Source: Escherichia coli (GTDB lineage Bacteria; Pseudomonadota; Gammaproteobacteria; Enterobacterales; Enterobacteriaceae). Taken from it: a stretch of 64,000 bases of DNA. Below, in pieces: positions 16,804-59,203 of the stretch. Every line of letters starts with the position of its first letter. Positions within the stretch are counted from its first letter, which is position 1. The stretch lies in NCBI RefSeq assembly GCF_030384885.1, contig NZ_CP128613.1; one strand, written 5' to 3'. The translations under genes and the position numbers were made by a program. The notes beneath the pieces are model-generated. The model searched no databases. It saw only the letters and a list, made by a program, of their open reading frames with translations, and was not told the origin of the DNA.

Positions 16804-16846
16804 GTTTATGCCGGATAAGGCGTTAACGCCGCATCCGGCATAAACA
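16804..16846. repeat. REP element (palindromic unit)
   Basis: gtttatgccggataaggcgttaacgccgcatccggcataaac, a near-perfect palindrome of the classic GCCGGATG...CATCCGGC type, between convergent gudD and barA. Confidence 0.7.
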
Positions 16847-21075: not shown

Positions 21076-23310
21076 ATGGTTGCGGTAAGAAGTGCACATA
21101 TAAATAAGGCTGGTGAATTTGATCCGGAAAAATGGATCGCAAGTCTGGGAATTACCAGCCAGAAGTCGTGTGAGTGCTTAGCCGAAACCTGGGCGTATTG
21201 TCTGCAGCAGACGCAGGGGCATCCGGATGCCAGTCTGTTATTGTGGCGTGGTGTTGAGATGGTGGAGATCCTCTCGACATTAAGTATGGACATTGACACG
21301 CTGCGGGCGGCGCTGCTGTTCCCTCTGGCGGATGCCAACGTAGTTAGCGAAGATGTGCTGCGTGAGAGCGTCGGTAAGTCGGTCGTTAACCTTATTCACG
21401 GCGTGCGTGATATGGCGGCGATCCGCCAGCTGAAAGCGACGCATACCGATTCTGTTTCCTCCGAACAGGTCGATAACGTTCGCCGGATGTTATTGGCGAT
21501 GGTCGATGATTTCCGCTGCGTGGTCATCAAACTGGCAGAGCGTATTGCTCATCTGCGCGAAGTAAAAGACGCGCCGGAAGATGAACGCGTACTGGCGGCA
21601 AAAGAGTGCACCAATATCTACGCGCCGTTGGCGAACCGTCTTGGGATTGGGCAACTGAAATGGGAGCTGGAAGATTACTGCTTCCGTTATCTCCACCCGA
21701 CCGAATACAAACGCATCGCAAAACTGCTGCATGAACGCCGTCTCGACCGCGAACACTATATCGAAGAGTTTGTCGGTCATCTGCGCGCTGAGATGAAAGC
21801 TGAAGGCGTTAAAGCTGAAGTGTATGGTCGTCCGAAACACATCTACAGTATCTGGCGCAAAATGCAGAAAAAGAACCTCGCCTTCGATGAGCTGTTTGAT
21901 GTGCGTGCGGTACGTATTGTCGCCGAGCGTTTACAGGATTGTTATGCCGCACTGGGGATAGTGCACACTCACTATCGCCACCTGCCGGATGAGTTTGACG
22001 ATTACGTTGCTAACCCGAAACCAAACGGTTATCAGTCTATTCATACCGTGGTTCTGGGGCCGGGTGGCAAAACCGTTGAGATCCAAATCCGCACCAAACA
22101 GATGCATGAAGATGCAGAGTTGGGTGTTGCTGCGCACTGGAAATATAAAGAAGGCGCGGCAGCTGGCGGCGCACGTTCGGGACATGAAGACCGAATTGCC
22201 TGGCTGCGTAAACTGATTGCGTGGCAGGAAGAGATGGCTGATTCCGGCGAAATGCTCGACGAAGTACGCAGCCAGGTCTTTGACGACCGGGTGTATGTCT
22301 TTACGCCGAAAGGTGATGTCGTTGATTTGCCTGCGGGATCAACGCCGCTGGACTTCGCTTACCACATCCACAGTGATGTCGGACACCGCTGCATCGGGGC
22401 AAAAATAGGCGGGCGCATTGTGCCGTTCACCTACCAGTTGCAGATGGGCGACCAGATTGAAATTATCACCCAGAAACAGCCGAACCCCAGCCGTGACTGG
22501 TTAAACCCAAACCTCGGTTACGTCACAACCAGCCGTGGGCGTTCGAAAATTCACGCCTGGTTCCGTAAACAGGATCGTGACAAAAATATTCTGGCAGGGC
22601 GGCAAATCCTTGACGACGAGCTGGAACATCTGGGGATCAGCCTGAAAGAAGCAGAAAAACATCTGCTGCCGCGTTACAACTTCAATGATGTCGACGAGTT
22701 GTTAGCAGCGATTGGTGGCGGGGATATCCGTCTCAATCAGATGGTGAACTTCCTGCAATCGCAATTTAATAAGCCGAGTGCCGAAGAGCAGGATGCCGCC
22801 GCGCTGAAGCAACTTCAGCAAAAAAGCTATACGCCGCAAAACCGCAGTAAAGATAACGGTCGTGTGGTGGTAGAAGGTGTCGGCAACCTGATGCACCACA
22901 TCGCGCGTTGCTGCCAGCCGATTCCTGGAGATGAGATTGTCGGCTTCATTACCCAGGGGCGCGGTATTTCAGTACACCGCGCCGATTGCGAACAACTGGC
23001 GGAACTGCGCTCCCATGCGCCGGAACGCATTGTTGACGCTGTATGGGGCGAGAGTTACTCCGCCGGATATTCGCTGGTGGTTCGTGTTCTGGCTAATGAT
23101 CGTAGTGGGTTGTTACGTGATATCACGACCATTCTCGCCAACGAGAAGGTGAACGTGCTTGGCGTTGCCAGCCGTAGCGACACCAAACAGCAACTGGCAA
23201 CCATCGACATGACTATTGAGATTTACAACCTGCAAGTGCTGGGCCGCGTGCTGGGTAAACTCAACCAGGTGCCGGATGTTATCGACGCACGTCGGTTGCA
23301 TGGGAATTAA
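21076..23310 (+). CDS. relA: GTP pyrophosphokinase ((p)ppGpp synthetase I)
   Basis: 744-aa ORF MVAVRSAHINKAGEFDPEKWIASLG... ending ...DVIDARRLHGN. Confidence 0.95.
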   Translation: MVAVRSAHINKAGEFDPEKWIASLGITSQKSCECLAETWAYCLQQTQGHPDASLLLWRGVEMVEILSTLSMDIDTLRAALLFPLADANVVSEDVLRESVGKSVVNLIHGVRDMAAIRQLKATHTDSVSSEQVDNVRRMLLAMVDDFRCVVIKLAERIAHLREVKDAPEDERVLAAKECTNIYAPLANRLGIGQLKWELEDYCFRYLHPTEYKRIAKLLHERRLDREHYIEEFVGHLRAEMKAEGVKAEVYGRPKHIYSIWRKMQKKNLAFDELFDVRAVRIVAERLQDCYAALGIVHTHYRHLPDEFDDYVANPKPNGYQSIHTVVLGPGGKTVEIQIRTKQMHEDAELGVAAHWKYKEGAAAGGARSGHEDRIAWLRKLIAWQEEMADSGEMLDEVRSQVFDDRVYVFTPKGDVVDLPAGSTPLDFAYHIHSDVGHRCIGAKIGGRIVPFTYQLQMGDQIEIITQKQPNPSRDWLNPNLGYVTTSRGRSKIHAWFRKQDRDKNILAGRQILDDELEHLGISLKEAEKHLLPRYNFNDVDELLAAIGGGDIRLNQMVNFLQSQFNKPSAEEQDAAALKQLQQKSYTPQNRSKDNGRVVVEGVGNLMHHIARCCQPIPGDEIVGFITQGRGISVHRADCEQLAELRSHAPERIVDAVWGESYSAGYSLVVRVLANDRSGLLRDITTILANEKVNVLGVASRSDTKQQLATIDMTIEIYNLQVLGRVLGKLNQVPDVIDARRLHGN

Positions 23311-23404
23311 TCTGCATAGCTGGATATGGCATCAGCTGTATCCAGCGGTATCTTTTACTCGAAGGTATTACACCTGACAGACCCGCAATTTTCAGGACAT
23401 TCTA

Positions 23405-24196
23405 ATGAATCAAATCGATCGTTTGCTCACTATTATGCAGCGTCTTCGCGACCCGGAAAATGGCTGCCCGTGGGATAAAGAGCAGACATTCGCCACCATT
23501 GCACCTTACACTCTTGAAGAAACCTACGAAGTGCTGGACGCCATCGCCCGTGAAGACTTTGACGATCTGCGCGGTGAACTCGGCGATCTGTTGTTCCAGG
23601 TGGTGTTTTACGCGCAAATGGCTCAGGAAGAGGGGCGCTTTGATTTTAATGATATCTGCGCCGCGATTAGCGATAAGCTAGAACGTCGCCATCCACATGT
23701 TTTTGCAGGCAGTTCTGCCGAAAACAGTAATGAAGTGCTTGCCCGTTGGGAGCAAATCAAAACCGAAGAGCGCGCGCAGAAAGCGCAGCATTCGGCGCTG
23801 GACGATATTCCTCGTAGTTTACCGGCTTTAATGCGTGCGCAAAAAATCCAGAAACGTTGCGCCAACGTTGGCTTTGACTGGACGACACTCGGCCCGGTAG
23901 TCGATAAGGTCTACGAAGAGATCGACGAGGTGATGTACGAGGCGCGGCAGGCTGTTGTCGACCAGGCTAAACTGGAGGAGGAAATGGGTGACCTGCTGTT
24001 TGCCACGGTCAATCTGGCTCGCCATTTAGGGACAAAAGCGGAAATCGCATTGCAAAAAGCGAACGAAAAATTCGAGCGTCGTTTTCGCGAAGTGGAGCGT
24101 ATTGTTGCCGCGCGTGGACTGGAAATGACAGGTGTTGACCTCGAAACAATGGAAGAAGTCTGGCAACAGGTAAAACGGCAGGAAATTGATCTCTAA
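23405..24196 (+). CDS. mazG: Nucleoside triphosphate pyrophosphohydrolase MazG
   Basis: 263-aa ORF MNQIDRLLTIMQRLRDPENGCPWDKEQTF...; starts only 94 nt after the relA stop. Confidence 0.93.
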   Translation: MNQIDRLLTIMQRLRDPENGCPWDKEQTFATIAPYTLEETYEVLDAIAREDFDDLRGELGDLLFQVVFYAQMAQEEGRFDFNDICAAISDKLERRHPHVFAGSSAENSNEVLARWEQIKTEERAQKAQHSALDDIPRSLPALMRAQKIQKRCANVGFDWTTLGPVVDKVYEEIDEVMYEARQAVVDQAKLEEEMGDLLFATVNLARHLGTKAEIALQKANEKFERRFREVERIVAARGLEMTGVDLETMEEVWQQVKRQEIDL

Positions 24197-27506: not shown

Positions 27507-28412
27507 TTACCAGCGACCAGAAGCACCGCCACCGCCAGAAGAACCGCCACCTCCGCTAAATCCGCCGCCACTTGAGCCGCCACCGGAAGAGGATGAAGAA
27601 GAACCTTTTCTTGAAGCTCTTTCTTTACCGAGCGTCTTGTATTTGGCCCGTAGCTTTTTATTAACGATAAGCCAAAAGATAACCAGTGGTACGATCGCAA
27701 AAGGCGTTAACATACCGCAGGCAACGATTAAATTCGTCCATGGTCCTGGCTCGGCAACATAGAGGAATACCATCCCGTAAATTGCGGCAGTGAGAGTTAT
27801 CCAGGGTAAATTCGACGGATCGGTAAAAACAATAAAATATGAAAGCACTGCCAGCAATATAATTACAGCAAGCGAAAATGGGATAGGGGGATTGATACTG
27901 TAATAATTCCCCCTGCCTTCCGGTAATTCACCATTCATCAGAAGTGCGCCGATATTTTCGCTTGCCAGTGTTAACCCCCCCATCAGGTCATCACTTTTGA
28001 AAGCAGGGATTAATATATCACGGATAATCTTTGCCGCTTGCAGGTCGGTAACCACCCCTTCCAGCCCATAGCCGACTTCTATACGAACAGCATGATCTTC
28101 CCAGGCAACCAGAAGTAAAATGCCATCGTTTCGCTGCTTATCTCCCAGTTTCCAGCTATCAAAAACGCGTGTTGCATATTGTTCAATGGTATCGTCTCCG
28201 GTGGATGGCACTATTAATACGGCAACCTGTGCCCGTGTTTTTTGTGTAATATCCTGCAGCTGTTGTGTCAGTGATTGTTGTTCAGACATGCTTAAGGTAC
28301 CAGTAATATCGGTCACCTGTTGGCGCAGCTCCGGCACAGCAATTTGCTGGGCAAGCACAGGAAGGCACCATAAAGTGAGTAGAAAAAGGATTATACGCAT
28401 AACGATCACCAA
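27507..28412 (-). CDS. TPM-domain membrane protein (YgcG-like), paralog 3
   Basis: 301-aa ORF with signal peptide, TPM/DUF477-like region (DITGTLS...VAVLIVPSTGDDTIEQYATRVFDSWKLGDK), transmembrane segments and a Gly/Ser-rich tail ending GGGGASGRW; start overlaps the stop of the upstream paralog. Confidence 0.8.
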   Translation of the reverse strand: MVIVMRIILFLLTLWCLPVLAQQIAVPELRQQVTDITGTLSMSEQQSLTQQLQDITQKTRAQVAVLIVPSTGDDTIEQYATRVFDSWKLGDKQRNDGILLLVAWEDHAVRIEVGYGLEGVVTDLQAAKIIRDILIPAFKSDDLMGGLTLASENIGALLMNGELPEGRGNYYSINPPIPFSLAVIILLAVLSYFIVFTDPSNLPWITLTAAIYGMVFLYVAEPGPWTNLIVACGMLTPFAIVPLVIFWLIVNKKLRAKYKTLGKERASRKGSSSSSSGGGSSGGGFSGGGGSSGGGGASGRW

Positions 28413-29554
28413 CGGTCGGATGAACCGCCACCGCCAGAAGAACCGCCGCCACCGCGGAAAGAGTTTTTCGACGAAGAACGAGAATGAGCATTACGATTCC
28501 CCGTTTTCTTGTTGCTTTTATGCCCTGATCCCAGTTTAAGATTGCCAGTAAATTTGGCCACAATGATCAGCAGAACGATGCCAGCAATGGTTATTGGGCC
28601 GATAAAATGATCAATTAGCCCAATAATTGTTGAGATGAACGCAATATCTTTATTACTGGCGAATACCAGGCACCATCCCACAACAATTATCAGCAGCACG
28701 ACAAACAATGAATTTCGTCCTGATTCACGAACCTGCGGAGCCTTCTTTTGTTTTTTCACTTTAGCGTTTTTATTTTGGGGGGCCAGCATCATAGGAAATG
28801 CGCGGCATATATTAAAAACTACCGCGAGACGCTGCCAGCAGATTGCTGCGAAAAATAAACTAAAACAAACGACCGATACCCGTCGAATGATGACATCGTT
28901 CTGAAAGCAGAAAAACCAGACCATAGGGGTAATCATCGATATCATCCATATGCCAGGCCCTGGATGGGTGGTAAATCGCCAGAGGACAACGATGGCAACG
29001 ATCATCAGCAGTGTCCAGGCAAGACATGGCAGAGAGCGTTGCGGATTAGCAAACAGATGATTGGCTAAAGCATCCAAAGGGCTAAGATTCGCTTTTATAT
29101 AGGTAAACTGTGCGATGCCTTCAATTCCCTGCGTTAACCCGGAGAAGAGATTATTTTTTTTGAATTCCGGTTGCATATGGTAATGAACAATTTGCGCAGC
29201 TTGTTCCGGTGGCAGCATCTCTTCCAGTCCATGCCCAATCTTCATTGACGCCAGCCCTTCCGGCCAAACGACGAGAATTAAGATACCTTCGCCGTACCGC
29301 TTCTCTCCAACAGGTTTCCAGTGATATAACCCGTAGCTTTGCGAGGCTGCAAGTTTAATGTCTTTACCCCCAGTGGTCGGCGTTACCAACACGGCAACCT
29401 GAAAGTGGTTTTGCTGCTCGAGAGTCTGTAATTGTTGAGTTAAAGCAGTTTGTTCTTCTGTCGTTAATGTCCCGGTTAAGTCAGTTACTGAAGGCAATTG
29501 TTCAGCGAATGCCTGGAAACCACATAGCATCAGAAGTAAGAGAAAAATACGCAT
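28406..29554 (-). CDS. TPM-domain membrane protein, paralog 2 (polytopic, most divergent)
   Basis: 382-aa ORF with signal peptide MRIFLLLLMLCGFQAFA, TPM-like region, several hydrophobic segments, tail ...GGGGSSGGGGSSDRW. Confidence 0.75.
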   Translation of the reverse strand: MRIFLLLLMLCGFQAFAEQLPSVTDLTGTLTTEEQTALTQQLQTLEQQNHFQVAVLVTPTTGGKDIKLAASQSYGLYHWKPVGEKRYGEGILILVVWPEGLASMKIGHGLEEMLPPEQAAQIVHYHMQPEFKKNNLFSGLTQGIEGIAQFTYIKANLSPLDALANHLFANPQRSLPCLAWTLLMIVAIVVLWRFTTHPGPGIWMISMITPMVWFFCFQNDVIIRRVSVVCFSLFFAAICWQRLAVVFNICRAFPMMLAPQNKNAKVKKQKKAPQVRESGRNSLFVVLLIIVVGWCLVFASNKDIAFISTIIGLIDHFIGPITIAGIVLLIIVAKFTGNLKLGSGHKSNKKTGNRNAHSRSSSKNSFRGGGGSSGGGGSSDRW

Positions 29555-29568
29555 TTCAATTCCTTTTG

Positions 29569-30507
29569 TTACCAGCGCCCGGAGGCGCCACCGCCGCCAG
29601 ATGAACCGCCGCCGCCGCTGAAATTATCATTGTCAAAAGAGGATGAAGAGGAAGATGACGACGATGATGAAGAACGCCTGGAGGCCGAGTTACTTCTTTC
29701 GTAATGTGACGGTCGGTTGGCACTGCGCATCGAATCCCGAACCTTTTTGCCGAAGGGGGTAAAAGCGATGGCGACAGCCAGGAACGGTGTGGCGAAGCAG
29801 AGTAATGTTGCGAGTACTCCCCAGCTTCCGCCGAAACCTGCTATAGGTAAAACAAAGGCCAGTACAATAGCTGTGAAGCAAATTAGTCCCAGCGTTTTGA
29901 AATATCCTCTGGCGGAAATAAAGGTCAGTACTATTGCCCAGACTAACAAAGCCCACCAACCGTTAAAGGGCAAAGGGTGATCGGTCGGTGTTATCGTTGC
30001 TAAATTATTCCCCGTCAGACGATTATCAATATCGCTTATTCCCTTTTGCAAGCCGCCAGCCAGGTCGCCATTTTTAAATGCCGGAATAATACTGTTGCGA
30101 ATAATTTTCCCGGACTGCGCATCCGTAATAACGCCTTCCAGTCCGTAACCGATTTCAATACGCACGGCCTGATCCTGCCAGGCGACTAACAGTAGAATGC
30201 CATCATCGCGGTCTTTATCACCTGGTTTCCAGCTATCGAATACCCGCGTAGCGTACTGCTCGATGGTTTCATCGCCCGTTGTTTCAACCACTAACACGAC
30301 CAGTTGTGCGTGGCTTTTTTGCGTCAGCTCTTTAATCTGATTGGTCAACGTATTTACTTCATCGTTCGTCAATTTGCCGGTTAAGTCATTCACATACCTG
30401 GGTGATTCAGGCACTGGAATTTGTATGGCAAACACAGATGAACAAAAGAAAGCCATAAGGAAGATAAAATTTCGCACAGGACTTCCTCGCTTAATGAGCA
30501 TTAGCAT
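29569..30507 (-). CDS. TPM-domain membrane protein, paralog 1
   Basis: 312-aa ORF with TPM-like region (DLTGKLT...VVLVVETTGDETIEQYATRVFDSWKPGDK), Ser-rich tract, tail ...GGGGSSGGGGASGRW; start overlaps the lemA stop by 17 nt. Confidence 0.8.
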   Translation of the reverse strand: MLMLIKRGSPVRNFIFLMAFFCSSVFAIQIPVPESPRYVNDLTGKLTNDEVNTLTNQIKELTQKSHAQLVVLVVETTGDETIEQYATRVFDSWKPGDKDRDDGILLLVAWQDQAVRIEIGYGLEGVITDAQSGKIIRNSIIPAFKNGDLAGGLQKGISDIDNRLTGNNLATITPTDHPLPFNGWWALLVWAIVLTFISARGYFKTLGLICFTAIVLAFVLPIAGFGGSWGVLATLLCFATPFLAVAIAFTPFGKKVRDSMRSANRPSHYERSNSASRRSSSSSSSSSSSSFDNDNFSGGGGSSGGGGASGRW

Positions 30508-31093
30508 TCTGGCTAAAATCTATTGTTGGGGCTTTACTCACAGCGGCGACATCATCCGGCAAATAATTTTTCTTCGGTGTGTAATCCATGACTTTTGCGG
30601 TTAACACTGCGGGGAATTTGCGGATAGTGACATTATATTGTTCGATGGCTTTAATATATCTTCCTCGCGCAACGGCAATTCGATTTTCACTTCCTTCGAG
30701 CTGTACCATCAAATTTTGATAGAGTTCCTGGGCCTTTAACTCAGGGTAACGTTCACTAATTATCGTTAACTGACCGAGAGTGCGAGACACCTGCGCCTGA
30801 GCTTGTTGCCAGGTTTGTAATTTTTGTTCATCTCCCGGAGTTTGCTGAAGAGCGCTACTGGCGCGATTAGCCTGACTACGTGCCAATGTTACGGCTTCCA
30901 GTACCTCTTGTTCATGGCTGGAATAACCTTTAATACTGGCGACAAGATTAGGAATAAGATCGGCGCGACGTTGATATTGATTTAATACCTCAGACCAGGA
31001 AGCGTTAACCTGCTCATCATAGGTTTGAATATCGTTATATCCACAGCCTGATAAATTGAAAATAAATATAATTACGATGAATATTCTGAGCAT
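30491..31093 (-). CDS. lemA: LemA-family lipoprotein
   Basis: 200-aa ORF with lipoprotein signal/lipobox (IFNLSGCG) and LemA-like coiled region; first gene of a four-gene minus-strand operon. Confidence 0.8.
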   Translation of the reverse strand: MLRIFIVIIFIFNLSGCGYNDIQTYDEQVNASWSEVLNQYQRRADLIPNLVASIKGYSSHEQEVLEAVTLARSQANRASSALQQTPGDEQKLQTWQQAQAQVSRTLGQLTIISERYPELKAQELYQNLMVQLEGSENRIAVARGRYIKAIEQYNVTIRKFPAVLTAKVMDYTPKKNYLPDDVAAVSKAPTIDFSQNANAH

Positions 31094-32275: not shown

Positions 32276-33219
32276 GAGTTCCCCGCGCCAGCGGGGATAA
32301 ACCGCAAAAACATGCCTCTAATCGCCTCATATCGCCGAGTTCCCCGCGCCAGCGGGGATAAACCGTGAATTCGCGGTCGTCGGTAGTTATTGTCACAGAG
32401 TTCCCCGCGCCAGCGGGGATAAACCGTTTATATCCCCGATACGCACGACGCGGACCGGGAGTTCCCCGCGCCAGCGGGGATAAACCGCCCCGCCCTCCTG
32501 CACCACGATCGCGCCCTCAGAGTTCCCCGCGCCAGCGGGGATAAACCGCCTTACGCCTGCAACCTCGTGCCACAGTTCATGAGTTCCCCGCGCCAGCGGG
32601 GATAAACCGGTTTTCAGTCCAGCGGCAGCTACGAGGAATCGGAGTTCCCCGCGCCAGCGGGGATAAACCGGATGGTTGAGGGTTATATGATGCCAGTTTA
32701 CGGAGTTCCCCGCGCCAGCGGGGATAAACCGGCAAAAACCGGGCAATCGCAAAAAGGCGTAATGAGTTCCCCGCGCCAGCGGGGATAAACCGACGCTGAT
32801 TATTCCGTACCAGTATTGTGAGGCGAGTTCCCCGCGCCAGCGGGGATAAACCGGATGACTCTGTGGCCTGGGTGGTTACCTGTCTGAGTTCCCCGCGCCA
32901 GCGGGGATAAACCGCCCTGCCCGTTTTGCGGGAGTTCCAATGTTGAGAGTTCCCCGCGCCAGCGGGGATAAACCGCATTATTTTTAGACGGTTGCGGGAT
33001 TGGATTAGAGTTCCCCGCGCCAGCGGGGATAAACCGCGGCCTGGTCGATATCTCGCTGCTAGCGTCAAGAGTTCCCCGCGCCAGCGGGGATAAACCGTAA
33101 GATGATCTCACGGAATTGAACGAACTACGGAGTTCCCCGCGCCAGCGGGGATAAACCGGACACAGAGCGCTGCTATAGCGCCTATGCCAAGAGTTCCCCG
33201 CACCAGCGGGAATAAACCA
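32276..33219 (+). CRISPR. Type I-E CRISPR array: 16 repeats, 15 spacers of 32 nt
   Basis: 29-bp repeat GAGTTCCCCGCGCCAGCGGGGATAAACCG at a strict 61-bp period, starting 32276, 32337, 32398 ... 33191; the last repeat is degenerate (gagttccccgcaccagcgggaataaacca); AT-rich leader upstream at about 31940-32275. Confidence 0.97.
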
Positions 33220-49865: not shown

Positions 49866-50018
49866 ATGCTGACAAAATATGCCCTTGTGGCAATCATCGT
49901 ACTGTGTTGTACAGTACTGGGATTCACGCTGATGGTAGGCGACTCGTTGTGTGAGTTGAGTATCAGAGAACGTGGTATGGAGTTTAAGGCAGTTCTCGCT
50001 TACGAATCGAAGAAGTAG
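49866..50018 (+). CDS. hokX: Hok/Gef-family type I toxin (small membrane peptide)
   Basis: ATG at 49866 after GGGAGG gives [50 protein letters not shown] (50 aa); Hok-type TM helix plus the LCE...AYE motif; symbol by position only. Confidence 0.75.
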
Positions 50019-50256
50019 CCACCACGCGGGGGTAAAACCCCGCGTATTGAATTGTGATGGTTTGGTCTCCTGCACCCTTTTTTTCATTTATATTGTTTTT
50101 GTGAATATTATGCCTGTGTTTATTATTTATATATATCACAGATGAAAATCATTGAATTATTCATAATGTGAATATTTTATTGAACGATATATATCACAGA
50201 TAATTTTTAATATATGCGTAAATATCCTTTAAGTTTTACTGAAGGATAAAAACATT

Positions 50257-51690
50257 GTGACTTTCTTTGATTTCTGGGGAAAAACCCGACGTGGCGAGAA
50301 AGAGGGTGGCGACGATTATCACCTTCTTTGCTGGCATTCGCTGGATGTAGCCGCGATAGGCTATTTAATGGTCAAAAACAACTGTTTCGGGCTGGCTGAC
50401 TATTTTCGTCAATTAGGTTTCGCTGACACGGATCAGGCAGCACAATTTTTCGCCTGGTTGTTGTGCTGGCACGATACTGGAAAATTTGCCCGCTCATTTC
50501 AGCAACTTTACCTGCACCCACAACTCAAGGTTCCGGAAGGCGCAAGAAAGAATTACGAAAAGATCTCTCATTCAACGCTGGGTTACTGGTTGTGGCATCA
50601 TTATTTAATTGAATGTGAAGAGTTGCTTCCTTCATCTTCACTCTCTTTGCGCAAACTTAAACGAGTAATAGATATGTGGATGCCCGTGACGACCGGGCAT
50701 CATGGTCGGCCTCCTGACCGTATCGATGAACTGGACAACTTTCTGCCTGAAGACAAAGCTGCCGCACGGGATTTTCTCCTTGAAATCAAGGTACTGTTTC
50801 CGCTCATCGAGATCCCTACATTCTGGGATGATGACGAGGGCGTTGAACTTATAAAACATTTTTCCTGGTATATCTCTGCAACCGTCGTACTCGCAGACTG
50901 GACGGGATCGTCAACGCGGTTTTTTCCACGCGTTGCACAGGCAATGGATATTAAAGATTACTGGCAGAAGGCTTTAGTTCAGGCTCAAAACGCATTAACC
51001 GTCTTTCCCCCAAAAGCAGAAAGCGCGCCTTTCACTGGAATTAATACGCTGTTTCCTTTTATTGAGAACCCAACACCGTTACAGCAAAAGGTGTTGGATC
51101 TGGATATCAGCCAGCCAGGACCACAGTTGTTTATTCTGGAAGATGTGACTGGCGCAGGTAAAACAGAAGCGGCGCTTATCCTGGCGCACAGGTTGATGTC
51201 TGCGGGGAAAGCACAGGGTTTGTTTTTTGGTTTGCCAACAATGGCAACGGCCAATGCCATGTACGATAGGCTGGTAAAAACCTGGCTTGCTTTCTATTCG
51301 CCACAATCCCGCCCCAGCCTGGTGCTGGCACACAGCGCTCGTTCGCTAATGGATCGCTTTAACGCATCGCTGTGGTCTGGTGATTTTGTGGGGTCAGAAG
51401 AACCGGATGAACAAGCGTTCAGTCAGGGATGTGCGGCCTGGTTTGCTGACAGTAACAAGAAGGCGTTGCTGGCTGAAATTGGCGTCGGCACGCTGGATCA
51501 GGCGATGATGGCGGTGATGCCGTTCAAACATAATAATCTGCGGCTTCTGGGGCTGAGTAACAAAATCCTGCTAGCCGATGAGATCCACGCCTGTGACGCT
51601 TATATGTCGTGCATTCTTGAAGGGCTGATCGAGCGGCAGGCGCGTGGCGGAAACAGCGTTATTTTGCTTTCTGCTACGTTGCCGGGGTAG
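50257..51690 (+). pseudogene. cas3: cas3 (type I-E), 5' fragment: HD nuclease plus helicase motifs I-III, premature stop
   Basis: 477-aa ORF with Walker A (VTGAGKTEAA), DExH (LLADEIHACD) and SAT motifs, stopping right after SATLPG; full Cas3 is roughly 890 aa. The start codon is non-ATG (likely GTG); my own count places it at 50258, one nucleotide off the track. Confidence 0.85.
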
Positions 51691-51746
51691 GGATACGGCG
51701 TGATGACACCGAATGCTTAAACGCGTTTAATCGCCACTATTCACTG

Positions 51747-52304
51747 GTGGTTTGCGCCAGCCGTAACCCGCGCTGGGCACGGGATTATCACACGGTCCAG
51801 ATGCCAAAAGAGGTGCGTAAAGCGCGTTATTTCAGCCGTCGCGAAGAGTTGAGCGCCCCTGATCTTCTAAGCGCGATTATCTCCCGGCGCGACTACTACA
51901 CCGATGCCTGGTGGATGGTGGCCGTGGCAACAACAGCTGATGCGCCTTACAGCCTCGAACAGTTGCAGGAAGGTTTACGCCATCCGGTTTTTCCGCTTTA
52001 TCTGGGGCGAAAAAGCCATCCGCTGGCATTACCCCTTGCGCCGTTACTGCTTGAAGGTAACGCGTCTGATGCCTTACGTAACGCATACCAACAGTATCAG
52101 GATCGTTTCCACGAACTGAAAGTCTCACTCCCGAAACTTCAGGATGAATGCTGGTGGGAAGGGGAGCACGATGGCCTGGTCTCGAGCAAAATATTACGCC
52201 GCCGGGATGTTCCTTTAAATCGTCAGCAGTGGCTGTTTGGGGAACGCACCGTCAATCAGGGGCCGTGGCTCAGCAAGGAGGAACCATGTACCTCTCAAGA
52301 ATAA
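51747..52304 (+). pseudogene. casD: casD (cas5e) 3' remnant
   Basis: Frame contains RDYHTV ... PLYLGRKSHPLALPL, matching the C-terminal two-thirds of Cas5e as I recall it; no N-terminal region; its 3' end overlaps the casE start as in intact operons. Confidence 0.65.
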
Positions 52305-52932
52305 CCTTACATACCGGCCAGCTTTCGCCTGCGCAGTTACTGCATCTGGTGGATCGCGGTGAATATGTGATGCATCAGTGGCTGTGGGATCTTTTTCCTG
52401 GCGGCAAAGAAAGGCAATTTCTTTATCGTCGGGAAGAACTCCAGGGCGCGTTTCGCTTTTTTGTCCTGTCGCAGGAACGCCCGGCGGAAAGTGAAATGTT
52501 CACCATCGAATGCCGGTCATTTGCGCCGGAGCTGCGTACCGGACAATCCCTTTGTTTCAACCTGCGGGCGAATCCAACAGTCTGTAAAGCGGGTAAGCGC
52601 CACGATCTGCTGATGGAGGCGAAACGGCAGGTGAGGGGGCAGGCGGAAGGAAGTGATGTCTGGTTGCATCAACAACAGGCGGCGCTGGGCTGGCTGGCTG
52701 CGCAGGGAGAGAGAAGTGGTTTTACACTGCTGGATACCTCGGTCGATGCCTACCGACAACAGCAACTGCGGCGGGAAAATGCCCGGCAACTGATCCAGTT
52801 CAGTAGCGTGGATTATACGGGGATGCTGACGGTCACCGAGCCAGGGTTATTTCTGCAACGTCTCTGCCTGGGGTATGGCAAAAGCCGGGCGTTCGGCTGT
52901 GGTCTGATGTTAATCAAACCCGGAGCAGAGGC

Positions 52933-52936: not shown

Positions 52937-54146
<1,210 letters not shown>

Positions 54147-54240
54147 GTTACCCGTTCTTTAAAAATAAGGAAATGTTTGAATTTAGTTGGTAGATTGTTG
54201 ATGTGGAATAAAATTGTTTAAAAACAGATACGTATGCTTA

Positions 54241-54574
54241 GTGTGTTCCCCGCGCCAGCGGGGATAAACCGAATACCCAGCGCTATTTCGAGCGCGAGAG
54301 AGTGTGTTCCCCGCGCCAGCGGGGATAAACCGGAAATTTCGGAAATTAAATCCGCTCGCGATCGGTGTTCCCCGCGCCAGCGGGGATAAACCCCATGGCA
54401 GGAAGAGCGGATGATTTAGGGGTAAGTGTTCCCCGCGCCAGCGGGGATAAACCGAAGCCGGATCACATTTTCTTAGCGGAGCTGACGTGTTCCCCGCGCC
54501 AGCGGGGATAAACCGCTCTCGGTTCTGGGGTACTGTTACCCATAACTGAGCTCCCCCGCGTCAGCGGGGGAACT
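54241..54574 (+). CRISPR. Type I-E CRISPR array beside cas2: 6 repeats, 5 spacers of 32 nt
   Basis: GTGTTCCCCGCGCCAGCGGGGATAAACCG at a 61-bp period, starting 54241, 54302, 54363, 54424, 54485; terminal degenerate repeat at 54546 (gagctcccccgcgtcagcgggggaactcc); AT-rich leader 54147-54240. Confidence 0.95.
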
Positions 54575-54597
54575 CCCAACTCCCATTTTCAAACGCC

Positions 54598-55635
54598 TCA
54601 TGACGCCTTCGCCAGTTCCTTCACCAGCGGTAGCATTATCCGCATAACGTCACGGCAGCGACGTTCTATTCTTCCAGGAAGCGCCTTATCAATATGCTGT
54701 TGATTATCAAGCCTTACATCATGCCAGCTATTTCCCGCCGGGAAGGCCGGTGTTTTTGCGCGTTGCTGATAACCATCCTTATTTCCAAGATTCCAGTTGG
54801 TCGCCTCCACCGAAAGTACCGCAATACCGGCTTTGTCGAAAACTTCTGCATCGTTACAACACCCAGTGCCTTTCGGATAGTTTTTATTCAAACCTGGATT
54901 TGTTGTCGCTGCAATCCCATGATTACGCGCAATTGCCAGCGCTCGATCACGGGTTAATTTCCTGACAGCCTCTGGTGTATTTACACCACTATTAAAATAC
55001 AATTTATCGCCAACAATTAAGTTATCGAGATTAATCACCAGCAGCGTATTTTTCTTTTCAGTATCGCTCATGCGCTTGAGTAAATTCTCAGCGCCTAATT
55101 TCCCTTCTTCTTCTCCACTGGTTGCCACAAAACGAATACCATACTCGGTAGGCGTATTTTTCAGACGTTCAGCCAGTTCCAGCATGACACCTAAACCTGC
55201 GGCGTTATCATCCATTCCTTGTAACGTCAGCCCGCCGAGATTGGCATCGGCGTCGGCATCGCTCAGTGGAGCGTACGTATCAAGATGCGCCATAATGATG
55301 ATCTGCTGCGGCGCTTTGCCTTCATGAGCGGCAATCACCGTACTTCCCGTCACGTTGTGCCAGTTTTTGCGGTTATCGCGGGCGGTGTAAATATATCGGC
55401 TATTAAATGTCCGAATATCACTGCGATAACCCATCTGTTGAAACTGTTGGCGAATATAATCGGCAGATAACATTTCTGCAGGAGTTCCGGTCATGCGTCC
55501 CGGAAAGAAAGTAGCAATATGTCGTGCCTGTGTATTAGCAAAATCACCAGGTTTAGGTGACGAGGCGTGTACGGGGAGAATAAAGCATACGCCGAGCGCC
55601 AGGGCAGCGGTACGGTGGCGCAATGCGGAAAACAT
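54598..55635 (-). CDS. iap: Alkaline phosphatase isozyme conversion aminopeptidase (M28 family)
   Basis: 345-aa ORF MFSALRHRTAALALGVCFILPVHASSPKPGDF... with signal peptide. Confidence 0.88.
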   Translation of the reverse strand: MFSALRHRTAALALGVCFILPVHASSPKPGDFANTQARHIATFFPGRMTGTPAEMLSADYIRQQFQQMGYRSDIRTFNSRYIYTARDNRKNWHNVTGSTVIAAHEGKAPQQIIIMAHLDTYAPLSDADADANLGGLTLQGMDDNAAGLGVMLELAERLKNTPTEYGIRFVATSGEEEGKLGAENLLKRMSDTEKKNTLLVINLDNLIVGDKLYFNSGVNTPEAVRKLTRDRALAIARNHGIAATTNPGLNKNYPKGTGCCNDAEVFDKAGIAVLSVEATNWNLGNKDGYQQRAKTPAFPAGNSWHDVRLDNQQHIDKALPGRIERRCRDVMRIMLPLVKELAKAS

Positions 55636-55887
55636 AGTGAGTCCTTAAATACCATGCAAATTTTTTTACCGCCATAGTATGAAACTGCCGCTGCGCTAAA
55701 ACAATTTCAAATCTTCCTAAACGCCCGAAATCCGGTGCCTTAAGCACTTTTTGATATTAGCTTTGCCAAATCGTTATTCCGTTAAGGAACTACTCATTCT
55801 AATTGGTAATTTCATTCGTTCTCTTACGCTCCCTATAGTCGAAACATCTGATGGCAAGAAAAATAGCGGTATTGCAAAGGAACGGTT

Positions 55888-56796
55888 ATGGATCAAAAAC
55901 GACTTACTCACCTGCGGCAACTGGAGGCGGAAAGCATCCACATTATTCGCGAGGTGGCGGCAGAATTCTCAAATCCGGTGATGCTCTACTCTATCGGTAA
56001 AGATTCCAGCGTCATGCTGCATCTGGCGCGCAAGGCGTTTTATCCGGGTACGCTGCCTTTCCCTCTGCTGCATGTTGATACTGGCTGGAAATTCCGCGAG
56101 ATGTATGAGTTTCGTGATCGTACGGCTAAAGCCTATGGCTGCGAGTTGCTGGTGCATAAAAACCCGGAAGGCGTGGCGATGGGGATTAATCCATTCGTAC
56201 ACGGCAGCGCAAAACATACCGATATTATGAAAACCGAAGGTTTGAAGCAGGCGTTGAACAAGTACGGTTTTGATGCCGCCTTCGGTGGCGCACGTCGTGA
56301 CGAAGAGAAATCCCGCGCTAAGGAGCGAATCTACTCTTTCCGTGACCGCTTCCATCGCTGGGACCCGAAAAATCAGCGCCCGGAGCTGTGGCACAACTAC
56401 AACGGGCAAATTAACAAAGGCGAAAGTATCCGCGTTTTCCCGCTCTCTAACTGGACCGAGCAGGATATCTGGCAATACATCTGGCTGGAAAATATCGACA
56501 TTGTCCCGCTGTATCTCGCTGCTGAACGTCCGGTTCTGGAACGCGACGGTATGTTGATGATGATTGATGACAACCGTATCGACCTGCAACCGGGCGAAGT
56601 GATTAAAAAACGGATGGTGCGTTTCCGTACGCTGGGCTGCTGGCCGCTGACCGGCGCGGTGGAGTCAAATGCGCAAACACTGCCGGAAATCATCGAAGAG
56701 ATGCTGGTTTCCACCACCAGTGAACGTCAGGGGCGCGTGATTGACCGCGACCAGGCAGGTTCTATGGAGCTGAAAAAACGTCAGGGGTATTTTTAA
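55888..56796 (+). CDS. cysD: Sulfate adenylyltransferase subunit 2
   Basis: 302-aa [30 protein letters not shown]... (PAPS-reductase-like fold). Confidence 0.95.
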
Positions 56797-56797
56797 G

Positions 56798-58225
56798 ATG
56801 AACACTGCACTTGCACAACAAATTGCCAATGAAGGCGGCGTTGAAGCCTGGATGATTGCGCAACAACATAAAAGTCTGCTGCGTTTTCTGACCTGTGGTA
56901 GCGTCGATGACGGCAAAAGTACCCTGATTGGTCGCCTGCTGCACGATACCCGCCAAATCTACGAAGATCAGCTCTCATCGCTGCATAACGACAGTAAGCG
57001 TCACGGCACCCAGGGCGAAAAGCTGGATCTGGCACTGCTGGTGGACGGCCTGCAAGCTGAGCGTGAACAGGGCATCACCATTGATGTGGCTTACCGCTAT
57101 TTCTCCACTGAGAAGCGTAAATTTATAATCGCCGATACCCCTGGGCACGAGCAGTACACCCGCAATATGGCGACTGGCGCATCGACATGCGAACTGGCGA
57201 TCTTACTGATCGATGCCCGTAAAGGCGTGCTCGATCAAACGCGTCGTCACAGTTTTATCTCCACACTGTTGGGGATCAAACATCTGATCGTGGCGATCAA
57301 CAAAATGGATCTGGTGGATTACAGCGAAGAGACGTTCACCCGCATTCGTGAAGATTATCTGACCTTTGCCGAGCAGCTGCCGGGTAATCTGGATATTCGC
57401 TTTGTGCCGCTCTCCGCGCTGGAAGGCGACAACGTGGCTTCGCAAAGTGAAAGCATGTCGTGGTACAGCGGTCCGACACTGCTCGAAGTGCTGGAAACCG
57501 TGGAAATCCAGCGAGTGGTGGATGCTCAGCCAATGCGCTTTCCGGTGCAGTACGTTAACCGCCCGAATCTCGATTTTCGTGGCTACGCCGGAACGCTGGC
57601 ATCCGGTCGCGTGGAAGTCGGGCAACGTGTCAAAGTGCTGCCCTCTGGTGTGGAATCAAACGTCGCGCGGATCGTGACCTTTGATGGCGATCGCGAAGAA
57701 GCCTTTGCCGGAGAAGCGATCACCCTGGTGCTGACGGATGAGATCGACATCAGCCGTGGCGATCTGCTGCTGGCGGCAGACGAAGCGTTACCGGCTGTGC
57801 AGAGCGCGTCGGTGGATGTGGTATGGATGGCGGAACAGCCGCTTTCCCCAGGCCAGAGTTACGACATCAAAATTGCCGGTAAGAAGACGCGTGCTCGTGT
57901 TGATGGCATTCGTTATCAGGTTGATATTAATAACCTTACTCAACGCGAAGTTGAAAATCTGCCGCTGAACGGCATCGGCCTGGTGGATCTCACTTTTGAC
58001 GAGCCACTGGTGTTAGATCGTTATCAGCAAAACCCGGTTACTGGTGGTCTGATTTTTATCGATCGCCTGAGCAATGTGACCGTGGGTGCCGGTATGGTGC
58101 ACGAGCCAGTTAGCCAGGCTACTGCTGCGCCATCTGAATTCAGTGCATTCGAACTGGAATTGAATGCCCTGGTTCGCCGCCATTTCCCGCACTGGGGTGC
58201 GCGCGATTTACTGGGAGATAAATAA
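56798..58225 (+). CDS. cysN: Sulfate adenylyltransferase subunit 1 (GTPase)
   Basis: 475-aa ORF with GTP-binding motifs ([18 protein letters not shown]). Confidence 0.95.
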
Positions 58226-58830
58226 TGGCGCTGCATGACGAAAACGTCGTCTGGCATAGCCACCCAGTAACTCCGCAACAACGCGAACAGCACCACGGTC
58301 ATCGTGGTGTTGTGCTGTGGTTTACCGGCCTCTCTGGTTCCGGTAAATCAACCGTCGCGGGGGCGCTGGAGGAGGCGTTACATAACCTTGGTGTCAGTAC
58401 GTATTTGCTGGATGGCGACAACGTCCGCCACGGCTTATGCAGCGATCTCGGTTTTAGCGATGCCGATCGTAAAGAGAATATCCGTCGCGTCGGTGAAGTG
58501 GCGAATTTAATGGTTGAAGCTGGACTGGTGGTGCTGACCGCTTTTATCTCGCCACACCGCGCCGAACGCCAGATGGTTCGCGAACGCGTAGGAGAAGGGC
58601 GTTTTATCGAAGTGTTTGTCGATACGCCGCTGGCGATTTGCGAGGCCCGCGATCCAAAAGGCTTATATAAGAAAGCACGTGCCGGTGAACTGCGTAACTT
58701 TACGGGAATAGATTCCGTTTACGAAGCACCTGAATCGGCAGAAATTCATCTCAATGGTGAACAATTAGTAACAAATTTGGTACAGCAATTATTAGATCTG
58801 TTGAGACAGAACGATATTATCAGATCCTGA
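58225..58830 (+). CDS. cysC: Adenylyl-sulfate (APS) kinase
   Basis: 201-aa ORF with P-loop GLSGSGKST; start overlaps the cysN stop. Confidence 0.95.
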
Positions 58831-58879
58831 GACACCACCGGGTTTCCATGCCCGGTCCGTCAAAGTTACAGGATCAAAT

Positions 58880-59203
58880 ATGCGTAATAGCCATAACATT
58901 ACACTAACAAATAACGACAGCCTTACTGAGGATGAAGAAACCACATGGTCACTGCCAGGTGCTGTGGTTGGTTTTGTCTCCTGGTTATTTGCGCTGGCGA
59001 TGCCGATGTTGATTTATGGCTCTAACACGCTGTTCTTCTTTATCTACACCTGGCCTTTCTTTCTGGCACTGATGCCTGTCGCGGTGGTGGTGGGGATTGC
59101 GCTGCATTCATTGATGGACGGAAAGCTACGCTACAGTATTGTTTTCACCCTGGTGACAGTCGGCATTATGTTTGGCGCACTGTTTATGTGGCTACTGGGC
59201 TAA
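58880..59203 (+). CDS. ygbE: Small inner-membrane protein YgbE
   Basis: 107-aa hydrophobic ORF MRNSHNITLTNNDSLTEDEETTWSLPGAVVGF... Confidence 0.75.
   Translation: MRNSHNITLTNNDSLTEDEETTWSLPGAVVGFVSWLFALAMPMLIYGSNTLFFFIYTWPFFLALMPVAVVVGIALHSLMDGKLRYSIVFTLVTVGIMFGALFMWLLG

Follow-up and report, generated by a model that had tools for sequence, protein, structure and literature searches.

The relA–mazG spacer without mazEF in an Escherichia coli chromosome is a common natural allele, probably of ancestral type

The absence of mazEF between relA and mazG in the window (the whole 64,000-nucleotide stretch of Escherichia coli DNA that was analyzed) is a common polymorphism, and the locus carries an ordinary natural allele of the species. 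The interval between the two genes is read here as an ancestral-type intercistronic spacer of 94 nt that would consist of one decayed REP-type palindrome, a T-rich tail, and a conserved mazG leader with its ribosome-binding site. The comparisons reported below make it highly probable that this spacer allele is of ancestral type and never held mazEF. The mazEF pair of K-12 would be the derived state, in which a 697-nt promoter–mazE–mazF cassette stands in place of a 60-nt REP segment. The filled and empty forms appear to coexist as E. coli alleles, which lineages probably exchange through homologous recombination in the genes on either side, relA and mazG.

The PGAP annotation was taken from NZ_CP027579.1, the chromosome of E. 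coli 2013C-4282 (human stool, USA), which is a 100% match to the window. The junction has the following features.

21076-23310, + strand: relA, GTP diphosphokinase (NCBIfam NF008124, 1677.7 bits, positions 1-744 of 744; PGAP)
23311-23370, + strand: private portion of the 'empty' spacer allele, 60 nt absent from K-12 (three-way alignment)
23319-23346, + strand: decayed REP-like hairpin with a 12-bp stem, G-U pairs counted, and the 4-nt loop ATCA (MFE fold)
23347-23356, + strand: T-rich tail GGTATCTTTT after the hairpin, a putative weak intrinsic-terminator or attenuator tail (consensus scan)
23371-23404, + strand: mazG leader, CACCTGACAGACCCGCAATTTTCAGGACA..., common to the empty, mazEF-bearing, and E. 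albertii alleles (alignments)
23405-24196, + strand: mazG, nucleoside triphosphate pyrophosphohydrolase (TIGR00444, 416.8 bits; NF007113, 368.5 bits; PGAP)

The relA product has 744 aa, the NF008124 match spans the whole equivalog (1-744/744), and the TAA stop codon occupies 23308-23310. The mazG product has 263 aa, and its Shine-Dalgarno AGGA (23394-23397) lies 7 nt ahead of the ATG within a leader that is conserved across all allele types. The spacer is therefore the 94 nt from 23311 to 23404, and PGAP annotates no gene within it in NZ_CP027579.1. The sequence-only reading had placed the relA stop at 23310 and the mazG start at 23405, separated by 94 nt that contain an inverted repeat with a 12-nt gap and no ORF. 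The ORF list, the NCBIfam models, and PGAP confirm both the coordinates and the content; the repeat is present as GCTGGATA (23319-23326) and TATCCAGC (23339-23346), and neither the ORF list nor tblastn reveals a MazE/MazF-like ORF in the spacer.

The K-12 MazE and MazF proteins were used as tblastn queries (E ≤ 1e-3) and gave no match anywhere in the 64-kb window. Just two ORFs of at least 30 aa reach into the spacer (23216-23377 and 23326-23478), and both overlap the flanking relA and mazG genes out of frame. An ORF for a MazF/PemK-fold toxin was not found in the window, and the 94-nt spacer fits no such ORF; the window likewise has no match for MazE, the antitoxin (AbrB/SpoVT fold) whose overlapping upstream ORF has an autoregulated promoter in such modules. 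The K-12 relA–mazE intergenic sequence has no counterpart after the window's relA stop in the alignment. Distant-mode blastn was used for a search of E. coli chromosomes and detected no mazEF-like DNA off the relA–mazG locus; this result rests on global place counts, 5428 places in 5425 genomes, which did not change when mazEF was added to the query. DNA of chpSB, the second MazF-family module of K-12, is absent from the NZ_CP027579.1 chromosome at megablast sensitivity. A chimeric query joining a window anchor to K-12 chpSB found one place in NZ_CP027579.1, the anchor only, and two places in K-12 strains; the search covers chromosomal DNA at this sensitivity, and divergent homologues and plasmids are outside its reach. 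The chromosome is thus without mazEF and, at the DNA level, also without the paralogous chpSB.

Of 5426 complete E. coli genomes, 4419 contain the mazEF DNA of K-12, in every case on the chromosome. A 64-nt core of the spacer was used as the query for the hairpin-bearing empty form, which is found in 1006 of the 5426. Together the two counts make up the 5425 genomes that possess a relA–mazG junction, so the filled and empty forms behave as alternative alleles of one site, split approximately 81% with mazEF and 19% without. Carriers of the empty allele include, by strain name, O25b:H4-ST131, Nissle 1917, ATCC 25922, and 'clone D i14'; the avian ExPEC strain BEN2908 carries mazEF. The spacer of the window is 90-95% identical to the allele of the 1006 genomes, the differences being a small number of substitutions and an indel of 1 nt, and strain 2017-02-2CC has exactly the window's spacer allele. 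Copies of mazEF are up to ~5% divergent from K-12 (900 genomes fall in the 95-99% band) and the divergence among empty alleles keeps pace with that of their flanks; both alleles are therefore old. The possibility that mazEF was collapsed in the assembly or missed in the annotation is negligible, given the same architecture in 1006 independent complete genomes, a negative six-frame tblastn, and a contiguous sequence with a 100% match to the GenBank record.

A three-way alignment of the window, the empty-site E. coli strain C4, and K-12 was used for comparison of the two alleles. Homology between the window and K-12 ends within ~3 nt of the relA stop and restarts at CACCTGACAG (23371), which lies 34 nt ahead of the mazG start codon. 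Over this stretch the 60 nt of the window stand against 697 nt of K-12, made up of the mazE promoter region, the mazE and mazF genes, and the sequence after mazF. No significant similarity was detected between the 60 private bases and the 697 bases of K-12 (a score equalled by 45 of 300 shuffles). As the segments are unrelated, the alleles differ by replacement and not by simple insertion or deletion, and the window spacer consequently cannot be the residue of mazEF excision from a K-12-type locus. A kinship of the hairpin to an inverted repeat inside mazF (AGCTGGACATCGTCCAGCTGT) was considered and treated as chance (45 of 300 shuffles).

The K-12 gene order relA–mazE–mazF–mazG, given in the sequence-only reading, is correct, as seen in strain J53. 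That reading had also left two histories side by side, that the locus either never acquired mazEF or cleanly lost it. The first survives for the allele itself; the second, deletion, falls on the 60 private bases that are unlike the 697 of K-12. Alignment of the junction with K-12 exposes neither a mazE-upstream nor a mazF-downstream scar, and in their place is the layout of a REP-type empty site. For the 94 nt to be leftover mazE-upstream and mazF-downstream sequence after a clean excision of mazEF is very improbable. The last 34 nt before mazG are common with K-12 and MAFFT aligns about 25 more bases loosely, but 60 of the 94 nt have no K-12 counterpart, the 3' portion aligns globally no better than shuffles (333 of 500), the mazE promoter palindromes have left no trace after the window's relA stop, and the true remnant-bearing spacer of E. 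albertii looks quite different. The loose ~25-nt MAFFT alignment of empty and K-12 alleles 5' of CACCTGACAG was rejected as homology on the same shuffle score.

The reading of the spacer as an ancestral-type allele draws on the wider family. One genome per species was scanned with MazG, which yielded 80 Enterobacterales loci (E. fergusonii is not among them). At 79 of the 80 loci, mazG follows closely on the relA 3' end, with a gap that is mostly 43-170 nt, and no MazE/MazF match occurs at any of the 80. Adjacency of relA and mazG without mazEF is thus the general condition in the survey. The Citrobacter and Klebsiella spacers contain REPs (GTAGGCCGGATAAGGCG...) that start 5-7 nt past the relA stop, and the layout of these genera recurs in the window: the relA stop, a short run of bases, a palindrome of REP type, and the mazG leader. 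An 'ancestral empty' state for the genus Escherichia is a matter of parsimony, not proof.

The E. albertii type strain NBRC 107761 (L006) has a relA–mazG spacer of 270 nt (L006 2737-3000) with a different composition. Its first ~35 nt are homologous to the K-12 sequence right after the relA stop, which is the relA–mazE intergenic region, and its end consists of mazF 3' coding sequence (16 of 17 bases) followed by post-mazF sequence. Two REPs, a BIME-like pair, sit between these K-12-type remnants, and no MazE/MazF coding capacity is left in the spacer. By these sequence signs, the E. albertii spacer is identified as a genuine mazEF decay scar, and the window spacer is free of such remnants. 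The scar places mazEF at this site once outside E. coli, so the insertion is either old or was transferred.

The flanking genes were compared with K-12 and other strains. Mismatches to K-12 across the relA 3' end and mazG are patchy, 0-18 per 200 nt, which is typical of recombination mosaics. The window mazG is ~95% identical to those of K-12 and C4, and the adjacent pyrG is ~98-99% identical. Strain 2017-02-2CC combines a spacer identical to that of the window, a MazG protein (WP_001071648.1) identical to that of K-12, and local divergent patches. Comparison of 22900-23100 and 23405-23900 with locus L089 and K-12 reveals divergence patches of up to 17 mismatches per 200 nt beside near-identical stretches. 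These patterns indicate a recombination mosaic at the relA 3' end and mazG. The mosaic flanks and the combination found in 2017-02-2CC make allelic exchange at the site plausible.

Such an exchange could have had a direction in the window strain. A mazEF-bearing ancestor may have received, by homologous recombination in relA and mazG, an allele of the empty type whose donor was a different E. coli or Escherichia lineage, and the recipient lineage, not the allele, would then have lost mazEF. The patchy mismatches, the 2017-02-2CC combination, the difference in identity between mazG and pyrG, and the occurrence by name of the empty allele in ST131, Nissle 1917, and ATCC 25922 alongside mazEF in BEN2908 all speak for this history; vertical inheritance of the empty allele, however, fits the data equally well, and the replacement is considered possible but rather unlikely. 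An origin from a cryptic Escherichia clade, suspected from a 1.1-kb junction whose identity to most E. coli does not exceed 90-95%, was dropped because the divergence is patchy (pyrG ~98-99%, relA bins of 0-18 mismatches per 200 nt) and 2017-02-2CC is a near-identical relative.

The hairpin of the ancestral-type spacer begins 8 nt past the relA stop codon. The inverted repeat together with G-U pairs forms a 12-bp stem and a 4-nt loop (23319-23346), and GGTATCTTTT comes next. A 106-nt region containing the hairpin has an MFE of -29.7 kcal/mol, and only 1 of 200 dinucleotide shuffles folds as well (z = -3.05). Pairing of the stem is complete (100%) across six distinct empty alleles, among which five pairs vary and one of them varies on both sides (U-A to C-G). 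This compensatory change would be only suggestive of a conserved fold, as there are six sequences and 89 of 500 shuffles do as well. The tail GGTATCTTTT is constant in the six alleles except at position 23348. A second, G-U-rich stem is predicted at 23347-23369, and an Rfam scan of 23200-23500 at E ≤ 1 matched no family.

The hairpin resembles a degenerate REP. It agrees at 24 of 28 positions with a bona fide REP that the window carries at 16810-16839 (1 of 300 shuffles) and at 25 of 28 with an E. albertii REP (2 of 300 shuffles), and its placement is REP-like, extragenic and just past the relA stop. The consensus type is GCCGGATAAGGCG...CGCCGCATCCGGC, an imperfect palindrome of ~30-35 nt, and a REP-core search that allows up to 2 mismatches misses the hairpin. 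The window has 9 REP-core matches versus 1.7 expected. The flanking GTAG/CTAC tetranucleotide of a REP is the site recognized by REP-associated RAYT transposases. The window hairpin lacks this flank, with ATAG on its 5' side, and the corresponding sequence is GTAG in L004, an Escherichia lineage that is ~92% identical in the flanks. The ATAG is consistent with a decayed, immobile REP copy. L004 has an orthologous single REP that is much closer to the consensus, GTAGCCGGATACGG...CCGTATCCGG, and this REP, GTAGCCGGATACGGTGTCAGCCGTATCCGGTG, occupies the exact position of the window's TAGCTGGATATGGCATCAGCTGTATCCAGC.

A terminator consensus scan also flags the hairpin (12 pairs, 6 of them G-C, loop of 4, tail GGTATCTTTT). 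The U-tract that follows is short, with 4 consecutive T, and GGTATC lies between the stem and the tract; a weak terminator would be expected from a U-tract that is short and offset in this way. A scan of 22900-23800 for sigma-70-like consensus promoters, the only sites it covers, found none. The lack of such a promoter and the conserved leader with its AGGA suggest that mazG is read through from relA, and the two genes most likely form a bicistronic unit in the window strain. The hairpin may act as a partial or weak terminator, or as a barrier to 3'-exonucleases that stabilizes the mRNA, and in either role it could set the relA:mazG expression ratio. For other REPs, a copy located less than 15 nt past a stop codon is reported to reduce the output of the preceding gene (Liang, Rudd and Deutscher 2015).

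The absence of mazEF had been coupled with a 'decayed cas operon' in the proposal that the strain shed two stress or defense modules. The CRISPR-Cas features annotated in the window are as follows.

32276-33219: CRISPR array in the queE–ygcE interval, ~944 bp
50211-52911: cas3, frameshifted (PGAP annotation)
53009-58773: casA to cas2 (PGAP annotation)
58870-59141: CRISPR array after cas2, ~272 bp

PGAP annotates casA, casB, cas7e, cas5e, cas6e, cas1e, and cas2e of the type I-E operon as intact, and cas3 alone is frameshifted. With this single annotated lesion, the description of the operon as decayed seems overstated. The shedding of two modules cannot be upheld, as the empty relA–mazG site is found in 1006 of 5426 genomes and the cas operon is complete but for cas3. 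One cas lesion and an ancestral-type relA–mazG site thus form no pattern of module shedding. Other genes annotated in the window include a type I toxin gene of the Hok/Gef family (49866-50018, between cysH and cas3) and several TPM-domain and LemA family genes clustered downstream of eno (27507-31093). The TPM-domain gene at 29806-30477 is annotated as a truncated pseudogene, and the same pseudogene is found in 2017-02-2CC.

Other genes occupy the relA–mazG interval elsewhere in the order. Superficieibacter sp. 1612_C1 (L019, 2060-3000) has a parDE pair between relA and mazG (ParD, PF03693; ParE, PF05016), which agrees with the parDE reported in the literature at the same site in Salmonella. 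Buttiauxella agrestis ATCC 33320 (L043, 1341-2928) has a cassette of Hcp (PF05638), DUF4225 (PF13988), and a small membrane protein between the two genes; the Hcp-DUF4225 cassette resembles an orphan type VI effector/immunity island. In Superficieibacter electus (L017, 2566-2904), the site of the Buttiauxella cassette is occupied by a small membrane ORF that appears to be related.

The relA–mazG spacer seems to be a recurrent site for toxin cassettes, in which cassettes and REPs swap for one another. The presence of mazEF in the exact place of the REP segment, and of REPs that refill the decayed mazEF of E. albertii, could point to a REP/RAYT-linked or hairpin-targeted mechanism. The stronger reading, a REP-marked landing site at which small toxin modules repeatedly displace the resident REP, with toxin-antitoxin (TA) integration and turnover that are REP/RAYT-linked or hairpin-targeted, is speculative and judged improbable. 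The mechanism by which TA modules integrate into chromosomes is said in the field to be unknown, and the landing-site reading, if true, would supply one for their integration and turnover.

The spacer found here returns to a simpler conclusion, that a mazEF-less relA–mazG locus is already known and ordinary. Strains without mazEF and with an undisturbed relA–mazG operon, UTI89 and 'many strains', were described by Fraikin, Goormaghtigh & Van Melderen (2020, PMC7167474), who cite Pandey & Gerdes (2005) and Fiedoruk et al. (2015) for this arrangement. Ramisetty et al. (PMC5120126) likewise regard these TA modules as insertions between core genes that arrived by horizontal transfer. The present analysis adds the 81% and 19% figures, the recognition that the empty allele is of REP type, and the scar in E. 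albertii. It also corrects the interpretation of the locus: the absence of mazEF after relA is an ancestral-type condition that is widespread in Enterobacterales and a common E. coli allele, and is not a strain-specific decay of stress or defense modules. The relA–mazEFG operon of K-12 would be a historical accident of insertion and not a functional unit, a point that has been made in the TA literature and that bears on the long dispute over the tie of mazEF to the stringent response. The three allele types, REP-type empty, mazEF-filled, and the E. albertii scar, may serve to illustrate, on a small scale, how TA modules come and go and how alleles are exchanged.

Four known arrangements can be set beside the window. 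The mazEF-less relA–mazG operon described in PMC7167474 has the same genes in the same order with no TA module between them, and nothing essential differs. A 2009 case that PMC7167474 summarizes is similar in that a TA cassette and REPs occupy one short intergenic site between core genes and are polymorphic within a species; it concerns another TA family at another locus, and the likeness is drawn from a one-sentence description in that source. E. albertii NBRC 107761 is like the window in having no mazE or mazF between relA and mazG, and unlike it in keeping mazE-upstream and mazF 3'/downstream remnants around two REPs. The relA–mazE–mazF–mazG operon of K-12 shares the flanking genes and the homologous last 34 nt of the mazG leader, but at the position of the window's 60-nt REP-like segment it carries 697 nt with a promoter region, mazE, and mazF.
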